From positions 1-32,000 of the forward strand of contig SUPR01000016.1 in NCBI GenBank assembly GCA_005191425.1: DNA of 32,000 nt. The letters are read 5' to 3'. Origin of the DNA: Candidatus Helarchaeota ASGARD archaeon Hel_GB_B (GTDB lineage Archaea > Asgardarchaeota > Lokiarchaeia > Helarchaeales > HEL-GB-B). The translations under genes were made by a program, and so were the position numbers. Positions 4,325 to 26,204 of the stretch are shown here, piece after piece (the first letter of the stretch is position 1; every line of letters begins with the position of its first letter). The notes beneath the pieces were generated by a model. The model worked only from the letters and a program-made list of their open reading frames with translations, was not told the origin of the DNA and searched no databases.

Positions 4325-5506
4325 ATGAAAAATACTTTTGGAGATATTCCCGATTTTCCCACGAAAAAATATTTCCCTATGGCAAGAAATCTAATGACTA
4401 CATTATATGAATCTGGATGGGATTACTTAAAGATGGCTCTTACTGAAACAGTCTATAATTTCCAAGATATCGTAAATATTCGACTAGATGATGCAATTCA
4501 AACCTCAAAATTAATTTTGGATGGAAAACTTGGAATTCCACCTGAACTAGTCTTCACTTTTTCATTATTTGTACCAGTCCTAGGAATTAGGTCAGACCTA
4601 CAACAAGGTACAAATGTTCTATTATTTGGAAGGTCTGCAGATGTATCTTTTACTGTAATTGATGACCTTACTCGTGATATTTCTTTTATTTTAAATACAC
4701 ATCTAGAACAAGGACTCCCAGCAAATTGGTATATTGTAAATAATGAAGACGAATTTATGAATAGACGACACATGAAATTGGGTTTTAAAATAAAAGATAT
4801 CCCAAAAAAAACTAAAACACTTAAAAAAATGGGAGTCCATTTACGAGATATTTTAAAAGATGTACGTAATGAACGTACACCTCAATGGAGAACTAGCGAT
4901 TATTATTGCGTCATGTTATATTCTGGTGGTATGTGTAATGCAGGTCTTGAATCTTCAAATTATGAAATTTTAAGTTATATATGGGAAGGGATTAATATTG
5001 ATAAAATTGGATGGGACCAATATTTTACGTGGTATCCTTGGCCAACATTTCTTGAAACATTAATGAGAATGCCCAGAAGATCTTCTGTTTTGAGGTTTTG
5101 TGGTCTTATTTCCAATAATAAACACTATATTAACCAAATGCAATTTCCTGGAATTTGCGGAAATCCAGGTGATTGGTTTATAAAAACTATCCCTGAAACT
5201 ATTGATAAATTATGGTATGTAAAAATGGAAGAAGGTCTTCCAACTCCTGCTCAAACATTGGGGTTCTCGGCGCCTGATTGGAGAAAATCAAAAATATTTG
5301 AAGATAATAAATTTGATTATATCTATCCTAAAGGTGAAAAAATAACTCCTGAAGGATTAGGACTTACAAAAGAAGAAATGCTTAATGGTGTATATCTAGA
5401 TATTAATCATGAAACTCCATTAAATGAAAAAATTGATGAATCAAAAATAATTTCATTAGGAATGGGTAATAAAACAAAAATTATCAAAGATTTAACCGTA
5501 AACTAA
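4325..5506 (+). CDS. Hypothetical soluble protein (393 aa), family not recognised
   Basis: Long ORF in AT-rich DNA with an SD and a globular, Trp/Gly/Pro-rich composition. No motif recognised. Confidence 0.75.
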   Translation: MKNTFGDIPDFPTKKYFPMARNLMTTLYESGWDYLKMALTETVYNFQDIVNIRLDDAIQTSKLILDGKLGIPPELVFTFSLFVPVLGIRSDLQQGTNVLLFGRSADVSFTVIDDLTRDISFILNTHLEQGLPANWYIVNNEDEFMNRRHMKLGFKIKDIPKKTKTLKKMGVHLRDILKDVRNERTPQWRTSDYYCVMLYSGGMCNAGLESSNYEILSYIWEGINIDKIGWDQYFTWYPWPTFLETLMRMPRRSSVLRFCGLISNNKHYINQMQFPGICGNPGDWFIKTIPETIDKLWYVKMEEGLPTPAQTLGFSAPDWRKSKIFEDNKFDYIYPKGEKITPEGLGLTKEEMLNGVYLDINHETPLNEKIDESKIISLGMGNKTKIIKDLTVN

Positions 5507-5543: not shown

Positions 5544-5635
5544 GGATTTCTCACAAATCCTGTTGCCGATGATAAGCAGATGTTTTTATTTAAAAACTGC
5601 CTTTTTTCATTAGCAATGGAATTTGTAAAAAATCT
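5544..5635. repeat. 92-bp imperfect palindrome (MITE/REP-like), related to the ends of the repeats at ~15.2 kb and ~16.7 kb
   Basis: Ungapped pairing with i+j=11179 gives 31 of 45 Watson-Crick pairs; 10 of the 14 mismatches are G.T or A.C. AATAAA flanks both sides (5538-5543, 5636-5641). 5580-5627 matches 16654-16701 at 40/48 and 15178-15225 at 36/48 (hand counts). Confidence 0.8.
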
Positions 5636-5700
5636 AATAAAGTAGGTTCAATATTTATCATTTAAAAATTTAACATAAGCAATTTAAATAGTGATTTATT

Positions 5701-6222
5701 GTGATTAAAGAAATACAAAAAGAATTAGAAGAAGTTCGGTCAAAAATTCCGCCAGATTTGTTCTTAAAATTAATACAGGAATTATATTTTCAAACTTCTT
5801 GGGAATTAATAAAATATTTAATTGAATATGAAGATATTGACCCAGATATTATCTTTAAGCACCAATTAGAAATTTGTAAAAAAACTGGAAAACAAGGCGC
5901 AAATTTACTTAAGATTTTCCAGTTTTCTGGTAATTCTTTGGAAAAATTAGTTAAACAATTTGCATTTGCAGCCTATAATATGGGTATTAATGCCGAAATT
6001 AAATTTAAAAGCGAGGAAGAATGTGAATTGACTTTCAAAAAAAATTGTGGACATGGACTTAAAATTAAGGAATATAACCTACCTTTTAAATGTAATACTT
6101 GGTGTGAAACTCACTTTAATTCTGAGATTAAATCCTTAAATTCGCAATTTGCTATTAAATTAATCGAGGGTTTGCCACAAAATAAAAAGTATTGTCGATT
6201 TTTGATATATAAAATAAAATAA
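5701..6222 (+). CDS. Small V4R / ATC-hydrolase-like / methanogen-output-domain-like ligand-binding protein
   Basis: Helical N-half followed by ECELTFKKNCGHG...CNTWCETH...LIEGLPQNKKYCRF; this C...C...C...G...C.F pattern is typical of the V4R/ATC-hydrolase fold group. Confidence 0.55.
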   Translation: MIKEIQKELEEVRSKIPPDLFLKLIQELYFQTSWELIKYLIEYEDIDPDIIFKHQLEICKKTGKQGANLLKIFQFSGNSLEKLVKQFAFAAYNMGINAEIKFKSEEECELTFKKNCGHGLKIKEYNLPFKCNTWCETHFNSEIKSLNSQFAIKLIEGLPQNKKYCRFLIYKIK

Positions 6223-13791: not shown

Positions 13792-14823
13792 ATGGTTAAA
13801 ATGATTAACAAATCTATAAAAGATGGAATAATTTCTATGTTTAAAGTTAATTTTAAGGTAAAACCTAGTGAATCGATTTTAATATTATCAGATTATCCTA
13901 CAGAAGATGATTTGATTAATTTATCAACTAATCAAATTAATGAAATGATACAAAGAATATATTTAGCCAGGGATATTTATGAAGTAGGGATCAATTTAGG
14001 TTATAATATTTTTTTAAAATTATATCCTGCTACTGGTCAATCTGGTAAGGAAATACCCAATGATATAGCTGATCTGATGCTGAAATATGATATTTTTATT
14101 GCCATTACTACTTATTCCCTTACTCATACTACTGCTCGTTTGAATGCGACTGAAAATATGAAGAGAGGTGCAAGTTGTCCCGGGATTCTGCCGCAAATGT
14201 TCGGAAAAGAAGGCCCAATGCAAGTAGATTATAATTTAATTTCTAAATTTACAATAGATTTAGCCGAAAAAGTGAATGAAGCATCTAAAGGCCTAATAAC
14301 TGCTCCAAACGGAACTAATGTTGAATTCCGAATAAATCCTAAAAGTTGTGAATACGATACCGGAATTATTGATAGCCCGGGAGATTTTTCAAATCTTCCT
14401 GCTGGTGAAGCATATCTTGCACCAATGCAAAATTCAACGAATGGAACATTAGTAGTCTCAAAAGGATGGTTTAAGGGACTTAAAAAAGATATGAGTTTTA
14501 AAATTGAAAATGGTTTAGTACAATCAATTGAAGGAGGCGGCGAAATTGGAGAAAAATTTAATAATTTACTTTTCAGTAAAAATATTGATGAATTAATATC
14601 ACTCTCAAGGAGAAATATCGCCGAAATCGGTATAGGTACCAATCCCAATGCCAAAAATCCCTTAAATATTCTTGAAGCAGAAAAAATTAAGGGAACATGT
14701 CACGTAGCTATCGGTGATAATCACACTTTTAGTGGTGGTACAGTTGAATCAGACATTCACATTGATTTTGTAATCCCAAATGCCCGATTATTTCTTGATG
14801 AGGAAGAAATAAAATTAAATTAA
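13792..14823 (+). CDS. Thermophilic metalloprotease / M29-type (leucyl) aminopeptidase
   Basis: NLPAGEAYLAP, IAEIGIGTNP, EAEKIKGTCHVAIGDN, SDIHIDFV. Confidence 0.87.
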   Translation: MVKMINKSIKDGIISMFKVNFKVKPSESILILSDYPTEDDLINLSTNQINEMIQRIYLARDIYEVGINLGYNIFLKLYPATGQSGKEIPNDIADLMLKYDIFIAITTYSLTHTTARLNATENMKRGASCPGILPQMFGKEGPMQVDYNLISKFTIDLAEKVNEASKGLITAPNGTNVEFRINPKSCEYDTGIIDSPGDFSNLPAGEAYLAPMQNSTNGTLVVSKGWFKGLKKDMSFKIENGLVQSIEGGGEIGEKFNNLLFSKNIDELISLSRRNIAEIGIGTNPNAKNPLNILEAEKIKGTCHVAIGDNHTFSGGTVESDIHIDFVIPNARLFLDEEEIKLN

Positions 14824-14825
14824 AA

Positions 14826-15232
14826 TGAGATTTTTCAAAATTCTTTATTCAACATAATTATATAAATATCAATTCTATTTTTTCGCAAATATATTCTTTA
14901 AGATCTTTATGTAAATTTTTAACTATTTCTTTATCTATAATATAATAGCATCTTAGAGAGTTTTAGAGCGTATAGAGATTTTGTTAACATAATATCATTT
15001 TTTATTGATTTATATATAATTATTGAATATATTTATAGGATCATTTCCATTTTTTGATATGAGAATTCTATGGATTAATGAAAAAATACTTAAAGAGATT
15101 TCAATTTGTCCTAGAATTATTAGAAAATCTGTTTGTCTATCGCTTAAAATTACTGATATAATATAATCTAAATCGGAATGCTTTTATTTAAAAACACGCA
15201 TTTTACATGGGCGACAGAATTTATAAAAACTC
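14826..15232 (+). repeat. Degenerate ~400-bp direct repeat, copy 1
   Basis: Collinear with ~16294-16704. 14976-15053 matches 16447-16524 at 65/78. 14901-14944 matches its counterpart at 38/44. taaatcggaatg is shared (15169 / 16645). Boundaries are approximate. Confidence 0.85.
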
Positions 15233-15266
15233 AGAATAAATAAAATATAATAAAAGAGAGAAACAA

Positions 15267-16121
15267 ATGAATAAAAAAGATTCCTATTCAAGAAACAAAA
15301 TATTACAAAAATTCTTAGATATACAGCCTTATTTTGAGTCAGTATTCCAAGAATTAAAATCTGACCATACCCATTTTTCCATGTACTATTGTAATGGGGT
15401 TATGCAATTTGTATCCTATCTCAAGAAATACGGTAAATCAATAGACAAAGGGCTTATTCATGACATATTCAAAGTATTTTTTTCACAATTAAAATATAAA
15501 GAAGAGGGAGTCGCGATCGAAAAAATTATGGGTAAAAAGAGGTTGGATATTTATAGGACAATTGCAGACGAAATAATAGAAGTAAAAACAATAAGCAATA
15601 TTTCTTTTAAAAAGATATATGGCACAGTTAAATCTGTATTTAAAATAATACCAAGAACTGATCGGTTATGGCTATTTTTCTTTATGAAGTTAGAACCTCC
15701 AATTCTAAAAAATAAGGAAAATAAAAAAGATAATGTGAAAGACTTGAAATGCAAATATTTTTTAATATTCCTTGATATATTACTATCAGGTGTAGACGAT
15801 TTGACCGAAATTAATAAGGAATTGGAGAATGGAATAAAAGAGTTGATAGAGAGTGGAGCAGAGGAATTGGATATATCAAAGGAAATAATAATTCCATTAG
15901 AAAATGTAGTGTTTGTGGAGGATCTAAAAAGAGAGTTAGAGGAAAAAAATAGGATAATAGAAGAAATAGAGAAAGAACTAATAAAAGAGAAACTTGAAAA
16001 AAAGAGGATATTAGAAGAAAAAGAGAAAGAGAAACTTGAAAAAATGAAAATAAAAAATAAACTAGAAAAAAAGGAAAAAGAGCTACAAGAACTTAGAAAA
16101 AAATTAAAAAACATAAAATAA
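15267..16121 (+). CDS. Hypothetical protein with putative PD-(D/E)XK motif and K/E-rich coiled-coil tail
   Basis: KKRLDIY-x-DEIIEVKT resembles the D…ExK nuclease core. The C-terminal ~70 aa are heptad-like, with a 19-nt exact repeat at 15984 and 16026. Confidence 0.65.
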   Translation: MNKKDSYSRNKILQKFLDIQPYFESVFQELKSDHTHFSMYYCNGVMQFVSYLKKYGKSIDKGLIHDIFKVFFSQLKYKEEGVAIEKIMGKKRLDIYRTIADEIIEVKTISNISFKKIYGTVKSVFKIIPRTDRLWLFFFMKLEPPILKNKENKKDNVKDLKCKYFLIFLDILLSGVDDLTEINKELENGIKELIESGAEELDISKEIIIPLENVVFVEDLKRELEEKNRIIEEIEKELIKEKLEKKRILEEKEKEKLEKMKIKNKLEKKEKELQELRKKLKNIK

Positions 16122-16293
16122 ACTAAAATATGGAATACAAACAGCAATAGATAATGATCCTTGATTCATTTTATAAAGTTATAACTGAAATATTTATCAA
16201 TAATATAATTAATATTATTTATATCAATCATTTAGAAAAAATCGGAAAAAATATATGATTATAGAAGGAATGATATATAAATTAAGAATTCCG

Positions 16294-16704
16294 TAAGTTT
16301 TTTCGAAATCCTTAGCAAGATAAGGATATATTAATAATAATTTTATTTCGTGAATATATTTTTTGATAAGATTTTTATATAAACTTCTAACTATTTCTTT
16401 TTCCATAATATAGGAGCAGAATCTTAGTGATCTTTATGATATAAATAGATTTTATTAATGCAATATCGTTTTTTATTGATCTGTATTTAGTTATTGAATG
16501 TATTCATATGATTATTTCCATTTTATAATGCGAGAATTCCCGAGATTGATAAAGGAAAAATTTGAAAAGGAGGTGAACCAAACCAAAATTGTTAAGAAGT
16601 ATACTTATCTTTTGTTTGAAATTACATATATTTGCAAAGAATTTTAAATCGGAATGTTTTTATTTGAAAACTTCCACTTTACATTAGCAACGGAATATAT
16701 ATAC
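16294..16704 (+). repeat. Degenerate ~400-bp direct repeat, copy 2
   Basis: See copy 1; the offset is about 1470-1476 nt. The end contains the hairpin GGAA-T-GTTTT…AAAAC-TTCC (16651-16675). Confidence 0.85.
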
Positions 16705-16749
16705 ATTAAAATCTAAAATATATAAAAAATTAATTGGTCATGTAAGTTT

Positions 16750-17862
16750 ATGGAACTTTTTTCTATAAACAATTTAATTAAAAAAGCAGTAGAAAATATA
16801 AATCAAATCAAGGAATCAGGTAGATTAGTAGTAGGAATTCCCCAGCACGGAATTATCCCAGATGAATTATTTCATGCAGGAGGTATATTTCCTCTACATT
16901 TGACTTTAGGAGGGCGGGCCGAGCAAGAAATCGGAGATGAATATTTATCACCCACAACATGTCCATTTGGTAGAGCTACAATTGGCTGTTTTGATGAGAA
17001 AAATGAATTATATAGCAAAATCGATTATTTATTAACCGGCACCTTTTGTAATGGAGTTCAAAATATAGGAAATTATGCAAAATATTTCGATCTCCCAGTA
17101 ATTAAATTTATTACACCACATACCACATCAAATTCAGCTTTTACTTTTTTTCTGGACGAAATTCTCAAATTAAAAGTTGAAATTGAAAAAATTACGGGAA
17201 AAAAGATTAGTAAAAATGAAATTAGCAAATCAATTAAATTATACAACAAAGTCAGAAAATTATTAAGAGAATTAAATTTGTATCGGATAAATATTCCTTC
17301 AAAAATTCAAGGTCTCGAATTATTTTATTTAGTCCATAAGGTCTTTTTATTAGGACCTGAAATAGTAATCCCAGAATTAGAACAAATATTGTCTGATATA
17401 AAAGACCGGGATCCAATTGAAAAAAAAGCCAGAATATTTTTAACTGGTAGTGGAATATGCTTGGAAGATAATTTTTATGAATTAATAGAAAATGAATGTA
17501 ATGGACTTATTGTAGGAGATGATCTTTGGTCTGGGTATGATTTTTATAGGGTTGATATTGAAGAAAATGGCGATCCAATAGAATGTATGGCTAAAAAATA
17601 TTTATTATATAATATGTGCGGTAGAATGATCCCAGATCCACGTATTAATTATATCTTTAATATTTATCGTGAATGTAAAGCTCAAGGAATTATTTATCAT
17701 ATTTTGAAATATTGCGACTCATATTCTGGACTTAAATATGAATTTAAAAAAAGCTTAGACAAAAAGCAAATACCGGTATTAGAATTAGAAAGAGATTTTG
17801 CAGAATCGAATATTGGTCAATTCAAGACCAGAATTGAAGCGTTTCTAGAGATGATACAATGA
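16750..17862 (+). CDS. 2-hydroxyacyl-CoA dehydratase family subunit (HgdB/HadC/FldC/BcrC-like)
   Basis: TTCPFGRATIG, TGTFCNGVQNI, ILKYCDSY (three Cys for the Fe-S cluster) and the C-terminal signature GQFKTRIEAFLEMI. Confidence 0.9.
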   Translation: MELFSINNLIKKAVENINQIKESGRLVVGIPQHGIIPDELFHAGGIFPLHLTLGGRAEQEIGDEYLSPTTCPFGRATIGCFDEKNELYSKIDYLLTGTFCNGVQNIGNYAKYFDLPVIKFITPHTTSNSAFTFFLDEILKLKVEIEKITGKKISKNEISKSIKLYNKVRKLLRELNLYRINIPSKIQGLELFYLVHKVFLLGPEIVIPELEQILSDIKDRDPIEKKARIFLTGSGICLEDNFYELIENECNGLIVGDDLWSGYDFYRVDIEENGDPIECMAKKYLLYNMCGRMIPDPRINYIFNIYRECKAQGIIYHILKYCDSYSGLKYEFKKSLDKKQIPVLELERDFAESNIGQFKTRIEAFLEMIQ

Positions 17863-19197: not shown

Positions 19198-20052
19198 TCA
19201 ATAAATTTCGTCCTTGTATTCTCTAACTCTCAATTTTGAAACAGCGTTCTCAAAAAACATCATTATATAAGACTTGAGTTCAGATATCCGTTGATTTATT
19301 TGTAAGAAACCTTCATCAGTATCTGAATATTTCTTTTCAAGGTCATTTATAAGATTTGATAATTTAAAATCAATTTGTTTAATATTGTTATTAAACTCGT
19401 CTATTTTTTGTTCCAACCTTTTTATCTTCTCAGAAATAGATAAAATTGTATAAGGTACCGAAGAAGTTGAATATTGCCTTAAATTACTTTTTTTATTTAA
19501 CTCAGATTTTTTTCTTGGTGCTTTTGTATAATCCAAAATACATTCTCTTAAAATTGGTTCTCTATTTCCCCAAGGACTTTTGGCAGAATAAGCCCCAGAA
19601 ATCCTAAGTGATACTAAATGATTTGAGCTATAAATTATATAAACAGTTATACGTCCATCTAACTTATATTTATTATTAATAGTAATGTGTCCTCTTGTAT
19701 GACTTGATAAAGCATCCATTTGATTAATCTTTAATCGTCTATGAGGCGACCATTCTAACTCACAATTGGAATAGTTATTAATTTCGTTTATTTCTTTTTC
19801 CAGAGCATCCTTTAAAGCATCTTGTTCCAAAATATTTGGGTCAGTTCTTCCTAAATTCCTTATAATTACAAGTCCATAATTTTGCCAATCAATTTTCGTA
19901 TATTCTTTATTAGAATCAAAATCCCATTCTTTATTATATATAACAATAAACGGTGAATTTTTCATTTTACACGATTCAATTAAACCTGAAGAATTCCATT
20001 CATTCCAGATGCCACTTAATACTATATTATATTTATTTAATAATTCATTCAT
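19198..20052 (-). CDS. Hypothetical protein with C-terminal coiled coil
   Basis: 284-aa ORF 22 nt downstream of the acyltransferase gene on the same strand; heptads in ISEKIKRLEQKIDEFNNNIKQIDFKLSNL. Confidence 0.7.
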   Translation of the reverse strand: MNELLNKYNIVLSGIWNEWNSSGLIESCKMKNSPFIVIYNKEWDFDSNKEYTKIDWQNYGLVIIRNLGRTDPNILEQDALKDALEKEINEINNYSNCELEWSPHRRLKINQMDALSSHTRGHITINNKYKLDGRITVYIIYSSNHLVSLRISGAYSAKSPWGNREPILRECILDYTKAPRKKSELNKKSNLRQYSTSSVPYTILSISEKIKRLEQKIDEFNNNIKQIDFKLSNLINDLEKKYSDTDEGFLQINQRISELKSYIMMFFENAVSKLRVREYKDEIY

Positions 20053-25049: not shown

Positions 25050-26204
25050 ATGAAGAAAAAGTCAAAATTAATTAAATTATTTTTAAGTATGCTATTAATC
25101 ACATCTACGTTTTATCCGTATGTACAAATATTACCAATAAGTTACGCTGATGAAGTTGTACCACCAACATATCAATGGATAAAAGAATCAAATCCATGGT
25201 ATGAATTAACTGAAGAACAAAGATTGGAAATAGTACCGCATCATCCAGATATTTATATAATAGAAAGCGCAAAGTTGGTAATATATTACCCTACTCAAAA
25301 TATCGATGTTGAATTTTTATGTCGAAAAATAGTAAATATACCATCTTGGGAGCCATCTGAGAGTAATAACTATTATATTCAACAAGATTTAGCATTATCG
25401 ATCTCATATTATGATAAAGGCGGGTCGCAATTGTGGTCTGGAATCTATATTGGAGGTGGACAATTTCGAGGCTACCACTGGGGTGACGAAGATATTCAAC
25501 AACAGCAACATTCAAATAGTTATACGGATGTTTATTTTATAAATAGTGGACGGACATTATGTTGGAATATGACTAGCACTTATTGGAATACTGCAGAAGA
25601 TTTTATACAAAAGCCAGTAGCCATTAATTATACTGTAGACTATGTCGTTAAAATTGATAATTATAAAAATGATACTTTATTCTTTGAAATCGATACTACA
25701 ATTCATTTTAATAAAACACATTCAGTAGATAGATTGATAAATTTAACTATGAGTTATGGGTGCGATCTATTTGATATATTAAAGTTTCAGATGGTCTATC
25801 CAGAGAACATGACAACGGGGGCTTTTTCAGGCTGGTATAAAATAGGGGATTATGATGTAATGACAATACTAACAGCAGAACAAGGAAGATTTATTTATGA
25901 TAATGGGACAGATATCTGGAAAAATTTGTCAAGAGGTATGATCATTGAGGAAACACCTCCAGAGCTAAATCCAGACATTAAACCATATGGGATAATATAT
26001 AATATATATATGAATAACTTGCCAGTAAATGATACTAAAGGGAATATTTCAACAATATATTATGACCCACTTGTGATCGGGTTCTATGAGGCTAGGGTTA
26101 ATTTTATCCTGGAAATTTGTATTATTCCGATAGGTGTGGGGATCATGGTCTATTTTATAAGTTATAAGAAAAAACAAGCAATAAAATCTGTCAAGGAGGA
26201 ATAA
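25050..26204 (+). CDS. Hypothetical secreted / surface protein with signal peptide and C-terminal membrane anchor
   Basis: MKKKSK + hydrophobic stretch + SYA cleavage-like site; N/T/Y-rich body; C-terminal TM ILEICIIPIGVGIMVYFISY followed by KKKQ. Confidence 0.75.
   Translation: MKKKSKLIKLFLSMLLITSTFYPYVQILPISYADEVVPPTYQWIKESNPWYELTEEQRLEIVPHHPDIYIIESAKLVIYYPTQNIDVEFLCRKIVNIPSWEPSESNNYYIQQDLALSISYYDKGGSQLWSGIYIGGGQFRGYHWGDEDIQQQQHSNSYTDVYFINSGRTLCWNMTSTYWNTAEDFIQKPVAINYTVDYVVKIDNYKNDTLFFEIDTTIHFNKTHSVDRLINLTMSYGCDLFDILKFQMVYPENMTTGAFSGWYKIGDYDVMTILTAEQGRFIYDNGTDIWKNLSRGMIIEETPPELNPDIKPYGIIYNIYMNNLPVNDTKGNISTIYYDPLVIGFYEARVNFILEICIIPIGVGIMVYFISYKKKQAIKSVKEE

Follow-up and report, generated by a model that had tools for sequence, protein, structure and literature searches.

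In Tn9, direct copies of IS1, an insertion sequence (IS) of ~770 bp with 9-bp duplications and a frameshifted transposase of two open reading frames (ORFs), flank the cat gene, and movement is of the cointegrate type. The integron mobilisation units of Enterobacteriaceae and Acinetobacter carry their passenger between IS-derived miniature elements, which are near-identical and accompanied by clear target duplications. Here, we describe a 1.9-kb module of related layout in a 32,000-nt window of Candidatus Helarchaeota archaeon Hel_GB_B (contig SUPR01000016.1, assembly GCA_005191425.1), to which all bare coordinates refer. The module (14827-16714) is composed of a 284-aa nuclease-like gene bracketed by two ~410-nt direct repeats, which almost certainly derive from an IS common in the host genome. 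We read it, with a probability of about 0.65, as a relic composite transposon of the pseudo-compound type that moved as a composite unit by an IS-mediated route.

The IS6 family offers the closest described architecture, forming pseudo-compound transposons with IS copies in direct repeat, translocatable units, miniature inverted-repeat transposable elements (MITEs) and IS-in-IS insertions, with flanking target repeats often absent (PMC7986276). Terminal inverted repeats (TIRs) in this family measure 15-20 bp, with a GG tip and an internal caaa motif, and an N-terminal Zn ribbon has been reported for a clostridial IS6 clade (PMC7986276). An archaeal IS survey gives a mean of 8.5 IS per genome in Asgardarchaeota; its main text does not use the term 'composite' and mentions MITEs as background only (PMC13343696).

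The module shares with the IS6/IS26 pseudo-compound units (Varani et al. 2021, PMC7986276) the direct IS copies around a passenger, a match to DDE_Tnp_IS240 and short termini with ...TCAAA at the same distance from the tip as 'caaa'. It differs in that both flanks are non-autonomous mosaics devoid of transposase, the tip is GAG rather than GG, the transposase carries an N-terminal Zn ribbon, the host is an Asgard archaeon and the passenger is nuclease-like rather than a resistance gene; membership of the parent IS in IS6 is not certified by NCBIfam. The direct IS copies around one passenger gene are also the layout of Tn9, and IS1 scores almost as well as IS6 in NCBIfam; the length, 9-bp duplications and two-ORF transposase of IS1 were not seen here. 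Composites flanked by MITEs share a passenger held between transposase-less IS derivatives that retain both inverted repeats, presumably mobilised in trans; unlike theirs, the copies here are ~30% diverged, mosaic and free of detectable duplications. The module would be a composite transposon of an ordinary kind, one seldom documented in Asgard archaea.

The direct repeats around the gene, first noticed in a preliminary description of this DNA, are real by every comparison made. A repeat search places the gene (15267-16121, plus strand, 855 nt) between collinear direct repeats whose matching blocks lie 1465-1476 nt apart. The two copies share 74% mean column identity over ~440 nt (MAFFT), 70.7% over 443 nt in a BLASTN search of the whole 3.54-Mb host assembly (E=6e-49), and 300 of 439 positions (68%) in a global alignment, against ~33% by chance at the same composition. 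Identity by segment is 62, 78 and 67%, and the longest exact run common to both copies is 13 nt. The IS termini define their limits, refining the bounds of 14826-16704 given earlier to 14827-15232 for copy A (dIS-A, 406 nt) and 16295-16714 for copy B (dIS-B, 420 nt), where dIS denotes an internally deleted mosaic IS; both lie on the plus strand in direct orientation. Transitions do prevail among the mismatches (82 versus 57 transversions overall), although less strongly than the 11 of 13 of the block first quoted. Both copies lack an intact long ORF in the ORF list and are decaying as non-coding DNA, as the preliminary description held, and scans of the window with Rfam (gathering thresholds) and ARAGORN returned no RNA or tRNA match.

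Each repeat splits into three pieces (the first ~90 nt, ~90-215 and ~215-406), all with relatives elsewhere in the host genome (G000; C-numbers denote its contigs unless the same-genus genome G001 is named). Piece 1, at 14827-14915 of dIS-A on the plus strand, is an IS6-like left end comprising the TIR and subterminal region. It matches at least 13 other contigs, often at contig ends, and is 78-84% identical to the left ends on C93, C112, C149, C128, C90, C133 and C19. When aligned with their flanks, the copies begin abruptly and together at GAGATTTTTCAAATTCC, before which the DNA is unrelated; the left boundary of dIS-A, at GAGATTTTTC, is sharp against 13 other IS left ends. Several piece-1 copies, those on the contigs just named among them, continue into an ORF that encodes a zinc ribbon (CxxC...CxxC) and the motif VDETFIKI and that matches Pfam DDE_Tnp_IS240 (E=1.7e-08, 35.1 bits, cutoff 27).

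Piece 2 is foreign to this element. Its minus strand encodes the last ~37 codons of another transposase, found on C117, with tblastn identities to the C117 C-terminus of 56% over 36 aa for copy A (E=2e-09; 14925-15032, last ~36 codons with an internal stop) and 59% over 37 aa for copy B (E=2e-11; 16393-16503), and an nhmmer match at E=2.3e-14. The family signal of the C117 transposase is weak, being DDE_Tnp_1/IS4/IS982-like (Pfam DDE_Tnp_1 E=0.019). Piece 3, delimited by nhmmer and right-end alignment to 15042-15232 of dIS-A on the plus strand, contains what is left of the C-terminal coding end of the IS6-like transposase and runs on through the right subterminal region into the right TIR (about 15216-15232). 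It matches C108 (E=4.5e-16), C44 (5.5e-12) and C116 (3.7e-05) in nhmmer, and also C152. C108 encodes the C-terminus of the IS6-like transposase at 2123-1923 and, together with C120, ties piece 3 to the transposase of piece 1.

The right end of dIS-A matches IS right ends on C116, C152, C105 and C108, and a further 16 such matches occur across the genome. In the right terminus (...GGAAATTAAAAAAACTC in C116 and C152, ...AGAATTTATAAAAACTC in copy A) the left one recurs as its inverted complement: the termini of dIS-A pair at 15 of 18 positions, left ends of the C55/C93 type pair with the C116 right end at ~20 of 27, and the right TIR of dIS-B is degraded by a 6-nt insertion. The termini contain TCAAA; their tip reads GAG in every full copy, a GG tip being confined to a 92-bp mini-element. 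The parent IS thus described has TIRs of ~17-27 bp (GAGATTTTTCAAATTCC...) and a transposase composed of a Zn ribbon, a helix-turn-helix and a DDE domain. NCBIfam detects an IS1/IS1595-type zinc-binding N-terminus and places IS6 first (E=4.9e-11, 42.7 bits, cutoff 125), followed by IS1 (39.3 bits, cutoff 100); on these profile scores, the parent would best be called IS6-like, within the IS6/IS1/IS1595 Zn-ribbon DDE group. The ends that had been taken to resemble no recognisable IS are therefore the termini of a multi-copy IS6-like DDE element of the host. The palindromic core in the IS right end folds no better than shuffles (z -0.98 to +0.89).

The copies dIS-A and dIS-B contain the same three pieces, with identical internal junctions and the foreign remnant embedded at the same position, and are therefore copies of one ancestral mosaic rather than independent insertions of the parent IS. 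An nhmmer profile of both copies found no other full-length mosaic in the host genome, only pieces of the parent element, and a search of 20 relatives with the DNA of copy A gave merely short AT-rich matches and no mosaic copy. A genome-wide non-autonomous element, proposed at first as an alternative, does not fit a mosaic that exists solely as these two copies. Measured against MITEs, dIS-A has the small size, both IS termini and no transposase, and is not amplified to many dispersed copies. A fragment on C104 holds just the IS6-like right part and cannot be assigned to the mosaic. The minus-strand 'shadow peptide' (14899-14950 and its partner in copy B), noted at first, is not the ancestral ORF: it straddles the point where the IS6-like left end meets the terminus of the embedded second IS, a region that is well conserved (85%), yet is not a gene remnant. 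The true coding remnants lie on the minus strand at 14925-15032 in A and 16393-16503 in B, and on the plus strand at ~15042-15149 and 16513-16623, respectively.

The module occupies two locations, both empty in G001, whose proteins flanking the two sites are 63-70% identical to those of the host. Site 1 is the spacer of the window between an M29/NicX-like peptidase gene (13792-14823, plus strand; Pfam Peptidase_M29 E=4.7e-05, PF26233 NicX on identical products), whose stop codon lies 3 nt before dIS-A, and the first of two genes for the D-component of 2-hydroxyacyl-CoA dehydratase (16750-17862, plus strand; Pfam HGD-D E=1.3e-75). On G001 contig C344, the peptidase (66%) and dehydratase (63%) orthologs are adjacent across a 143-nt gap, versus 1,926 nt in the window, and the 1.9-kb module is absent. 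Between dIS-B and the dehydratase gene, 35 nt (16715-16749, plus strand) with a TATA-like AAAATATATAA motif are probably native; by eye, they resemble the G001 sequence just upstream of the dehydratase start (GGTCAT...TTT(A)TG), a likeness not statistically separable from chance. Residual similarity of the module to the 143-nt spacer, considered as a discriminator between one and two insertions, was discarded (best p=0.048, uncorrected, against shuffles; no convincing segment).

Site 2 is represented by host contig C104 and by L034/L035, another assembly, from a closely related strain, which matches C104 at 97% identity over 3.7 kb. On C104, the right ~240 nt of a dIS and the same spacer lead into a paralog of the gene (80% identical). 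The order in L034/L035 is a partial dIS, the spacer, gene P0001 (310 aa), a ~170-nt spacer, a ~500-nt IS derivative and a VTT-domain gene, collinear with window 15074-16358 at 77% through the junction between the post-gene spacer and the left IS terminus. This junction, GAATTCCGT followed by (G/A)AGTTTTT, is conserved at sites 1 and 2, which share the arrangement of a right IS end, ~34 nt, the gene, ~173 nt and a left IS end. In the window, the 34-nt spacer (15233-15266, plus strand) is 82% identical to L034 and C104 with a conserved junction, and the 173-nt post-gene spacer (16122-16294, plus strand) is 75% identical to L034 4934-5103, its first 88 nt being present in C104 as well. In the G001 counterpart of site 2, a gap of 653 nt separates the flanking genes (64% and 70% identical); it contains a small unrelated ORF and nothing that resembles the module.

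On C104, the intact paralog is directly followed (25707-26162) by an additional, diverged (~76%) copy of the gene's 3' half and the post-gene spacer, and the G000 assembly was found to lack the VTT-domain gene located after the module in the sister strain; together, these observations point to a rearrangement or deletion beside the IS-derived flank. The preliminary description had suggested looking for an empty site in relatives, for a paralog beside another repeat copy and, by BLASTN of both copies, for matches across the genome. These searches yielded the 143-nt gap of G001, the C104 paralog adjoining the right part of a dIS, and relatives of the individual pieces on other contigs in addition to the match between A and B. 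Its suggestion of an old repeat-gene-repeat composite inserted between the peptidase and the dehydratase genes gains from both the empty site in G001 and a composite at a second site that is also empty there.

We take the 284-aa gene to be a passenger between dIS-A and dIS-B, two IS copies in direct orientation. We propose that one IS6-like copy was struck by a second IS of the DDE_Tnp_1 type ~90 nt from its left end, and that its interior would then have been lost between the intruder's end and the last ~60 codons of its own transposase, leaving a ~410-nt element that kept both termini and encoded nothing. This mosaic would have formed before or while becoming associated with the gene. Neither flank contains a functional transposase, only the C-terminal remnants in A and B, so any movement needed supply in trans or predated the deletions. 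In the proposed mechanism, full-length copies would have supplied the transposase in trans and the unit would have moved by a replicative/cointegrate or translocatable-unit route, as in IS26 or in IS1 of Tn9, with either an IS-gene-IS unit or a circle of IS plus gene, regenerating both junctions, inserting as a whole at sites 1 and 2. Sharing of both gene-proximal junctions, along with the emptiness of both sites in G001, would follow naturally from transfer of the entire unit.

Several observations weigh against movement as a composite. The upstream element at site 2 consists of the right ~240 nt only, its left half missing, while the downstream element lacks the IS4-like insert, has a longer transposase remnant and is equally far from dIS-B (67%) and dIS-A (68%); A and B are also further apart (~32% divergence) than A is from the upstream element of site 2 (23%). 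The flanking elements of the two sites are thus not simple copies, and resident-IS targeting, deletions or gene conversion must be assumed. Sequence inspection revealed no target-site duplication around dIS-A, dIS-B or the whole block, whose flanks ATTAAAAT (14819-14826) and AAAATATA (16715-16722) do not match; this absence would count as weak evidence, given the ~30% decay and the frequent lack of duplications in IS26-type units. The family assignment of the parent IS is insecure, with the IS6 and IS1 models of NCBIfam nearly tied and both far below their cutoffs, and no full-length IS with both ends on a single contig was found in the assembly, leaving the intact transposase as a deduction from its parts. 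Finally, more distant relatives lack the peptidase-dehydratase synteny, so the direction of change is argued from parsimony and from the IS character of the ends; with flanks 63-70% identical and no outgroup, the block may instead have been lost in G001.

Copying of the gene and its IS debris between the two sites by recombination, a segmental duplication without transposition, would accommodate the unseen target-site duplications, the flanking elements that differ between sites (the upstream one at site 2 being truncated and not ending at a terminus) and the further rearrangement of C104 right after the gene, with its 3'-half copy and lost VTT neighbour. We nevertheless consider it unlikely, since homology at site 1 begins exactly at the left IS terminus, 3 nt past the peptidase stop, and ends at the right IS terminus at both sites, both sites are empty in G001, and recombination between IS copies alone does not insert a 1.9-kb block into a spacer. 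Independent IS insertions beside a resident gene, guided by a preference for promoter-like AT-rich targets, seem improbable: G001 has the gene at neither site, so that it was not resident there; A and B have in common a peculiar mosaic, the same down to its internal junctions, of which the genome holds no further example; and the gene junctions are conserved base for base between sites. Such a preference does find some echo in the uniformly AT-rich left flanks of the IS and in right-end remnants, which often lie 25-65 nt upstream of co-oriented starts and are followed by AAAATATATAA-like sequence.

A decayed tandem duplication of the upstream region and the gene, with the second gene copy deleted, is largely refuted and keeps only a sliver of credence. 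Weak similarity extends ~20 nt outside the termini (14803-14826 versus 16264-16294, and ~20 nt after the right ends), and local duplications arise readily in the coiled-coil region of the gene. The extra similarity is AT-only and also found beside unrelated IS right ends, whereas both repeats are complete IS derivatives that retain their two inverted termini, no relative has a protein-coding gene at the repeat positions, and the sequence after dIS-B resembles the native G001 region upstream of the dehydratase. The encoded protein might itself be the module's spreading or maintenance factor rather than a passive passenger, which we hold to be a long shot. A homing-type nuclease would, in one version that is similarly doubtful, cut empty sites and have the block copied in with the IS-derived flanks as homology; in the other, no better placed, a selfish or defence gene would select for retention. 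If true, a role of this kind would explain why an otherwise single-copy Asgard gene is multi-copy and IS-flanked only here.

Whatever route the module took, its gene encodes a protein with a predicted PD-(D/E)xK-like domain (residues ~1-213) followed by a C-terminal E/K-rich coiled coil with tandem repeats. A phmmer search of 1.84 billion representatives returned 32 relatives only, nearly all of 245-310 aa, and those with a named source come from Helarchaeota and Sigynarchaeota metagenome-assembled genomes and are annotated as hypothetical; by this search, the family appears small and Asgard-restricted. The N-terminal domain matches no Pfam, NCBIfam or PADLOC family, and a sequence-profile search of the PDB gave nothing significant. 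PADLOC and NCBIfam matches to JetC, LmuB, SMC, RNase Y and others were rejected as compositional, all falling within the E/K coiled coil. Three family members weakly match Pfam DpnII-MboI (best E=0.0012).

An alignment of 23 members reveals invariant H65, E85, D94, K107, W135, C162, Y164, P210 and N213 and near-invariant C42, E105 and D132, with E105 kept in at least 90%; after these come the motif IIPLEN and a coiled-coil tail whose repeats vary in number. The AlphaFold2 model (pLDDT 87; pTM 0.85 for the N-terminal domain) places the E..D..ExK signature at strand 82-84, just before strand 95-97, and in strand 102-108. The C-terminal helix swamped the whole-protein structural search, and the N-terminal domain was refolded alone. 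Three structural searches then returned mostly proteins of the restriction-endonuclease fold, with modest scores. VIA-align found Hjc (1gef, Z 5.1, root-mean-square deviation 3.5, 95 aligned), tRNA-splicing endonuclease (1a79, Z 5.0) and phage exonuclease (3k93, Z 4.9), as well as HamA, Cas4, Card1/Cdn1 and many type II enzymes. Foldseek returned influenza PA-N (E=0.026, probability up to 0.97) and Cas4 (E=0.014), and Atlas gave PDDEXK_9, PDDEXK_1, PDDEXK_3, McrC, DpnII-MboI and Mrr_cat with TM scores of 0.34-0.43.

The protein thus carries the E...D...E-x-K signature and the superfamily neighbours of established PD-(D/E)xK nucleases (Hjc 1gef, 1a79, Cas4 4ic1, HamA and type II enzymes). It differs from them in lacking a sequence-level family match, with a best Z of 5.1 and a best TM of 0.43, and in adding a ~40-residue N-terminal extension, Cys42/His65/Cys162, the IIPLEN motif and a coiled-coil tail of 70-110 residues. 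On motif and model, it is probably a divergent PD-(D/E)xK metal-dependent nuclease that would oligomerise via its coiled coil, and the label 'nuclease-like' first given to the gene is borne out by the motif and, at modest scores, by the predicted fold. Mismatches with the C104 paralog number 23/17/55 at the three codon positions, indicating purifying selection on the gene. The tail-coding region (15921-16073) contains tandem units of 42-54 nt, and protein lengths among paralogs and relatives are 284, 310 and 323 aa, which indicates, at the sequence level, that tail length varies rapidly by slippage or unequal exchange.

Elsewhere, the gene family is patchy and single-copy, with solitary homologs that have no conserved neighbours and no nearby transposase; the host has three intact copies and two fragments. 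The third intact paralog (C70:196-1020, minus strand, 274 aa, 44% identical) has no IS6-like flanks, and ~360 nt upstream of it lies an 80-aa ORF that reads by eye as the C-terminal end of another transposase. A 65-aa family fragment covering the IIPLE region (C9:16748-16927) lies directly 3' of a gene pair read by eye as HEPN/nucleotidyltransferase. The G001 homolog (G001 C51:9342-10196, 44% identical) has an in-frame TAA, a neighbour that appears actin-like (lokiactin-type) by eye and no IS remnants detectable by nhmmer. A second 284-aa ORF in the window (19198-20052, minus strand), past the dehydratase genes, has a coiled-coil C-terminus and a weak FliD_C match; it was rejected as a relative of the nuclease-like protein, to which it is unrelated (BLASTP E=10).

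Two other assemblies carry the block at 100% identity and a third at 99.9%, and in three further assemblies (L048, L049 and L050) it differs at 2 of 1,926 positions. One of these differences, the loss of one A in AAAA 15642-15645, splits the gene into two ORFs. The same deletion occurs in two metagenome runs, and the gene is intact in the window and three other assemblies; the frameshift allele is thus carried by part of the population, in which the site-1 gene copy is dispensable. The near-identical strains L048-L051 all carry the block, with no closer empty site among them. A strain with an uninterrupted site, suggested by a loose end at 14826 in two metagenome runs, was rejected: the only contig with those letters, L047, is unrelated, its likeness to the 3' end of the peptidase gene being limited to ~20 nt of AT-rich sequence. 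Among the sequencing runs listed as carrying the locus, none is of RNA. Joints 13845>15570 and 16059>16715 were likewise rejected as real rearrangements, having sides of less than 30 nt that probably stem from paralogs, and joint 16128>15740 corresponds to the partial duplication of the C104 type.

What remains of the element is immobile debris, with degraded ends and ~30% diverged copies, fixed in the species. Given a longest shared run of 13 nt, homologous recombination between A and B, by amplification or excision, is no longer likely; together with the identity of the block across independent assemblies, this removes the initial characterisation of the module as amplifiable.

A 92-bp miniature of the same IS lies at 5544-5636, 64 nt upstream of the ORF at 5701-6222. 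Its left terminus, GGATTTCTCACAAATCC..., and right end, ...GGAATTTGTAAAAAATCT, pair over ~29 nt, and it has the size, termini and lack of transposase of a MITE. The flanks of the element (5545-5634), CAATAAAG and TAATAAAG, match at 7 of 8 positions in a register ambiguous by 1-2 nt and may represent an 8-bp target duplication, the length expected in the IS6 family. With its flanking direct repeat, the 92-bp element suggests that non-autonomous derivatives were mobilised in the host genome. Right-end remnants of the IS recur 25-65 nt upstream of co-oriented starts, followed by TATA-like AAAATATATAA-like sequence, at window positions 5636, 15232 and 16714 and at C154:17373-17463, C137:9292-9340 and C152:19131; this pattern reflects either a preference of the IS for AT-rich targets close to promoters or promoter elements contributed by its right end. 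The 5.7-kb contig C76 has an IS right end at 1-78 and an IS left end at 5334-5422 in the same orientation, and the segment between these direct IS copies may be a second composite or reflect an assembly break at repeats.

As a relic composite transposon with a second site and with empty sites in a relative, the module would mean that a Zn-ribbon DDE IS of the IS6/IS1 group mobilised a chromosomal gene in an Asgard (Helarchaeota-like) lineage. The IS-passenger-IS architecture is the same as that which spreads resistance genes in bacteria, in a group whose mobile-element biology is thinly described. For genome annotation, the two ~410-bp 'intergenic' regions and several short conserved motifs upstream of genes are IS debris rather than regulatory RNAs or novel repeats. 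The passenger, in turn, defines an apparently Asgard-restricted family of probable nucleases with a clear catalytic signature and a rapidly varying coiled-coil tail.

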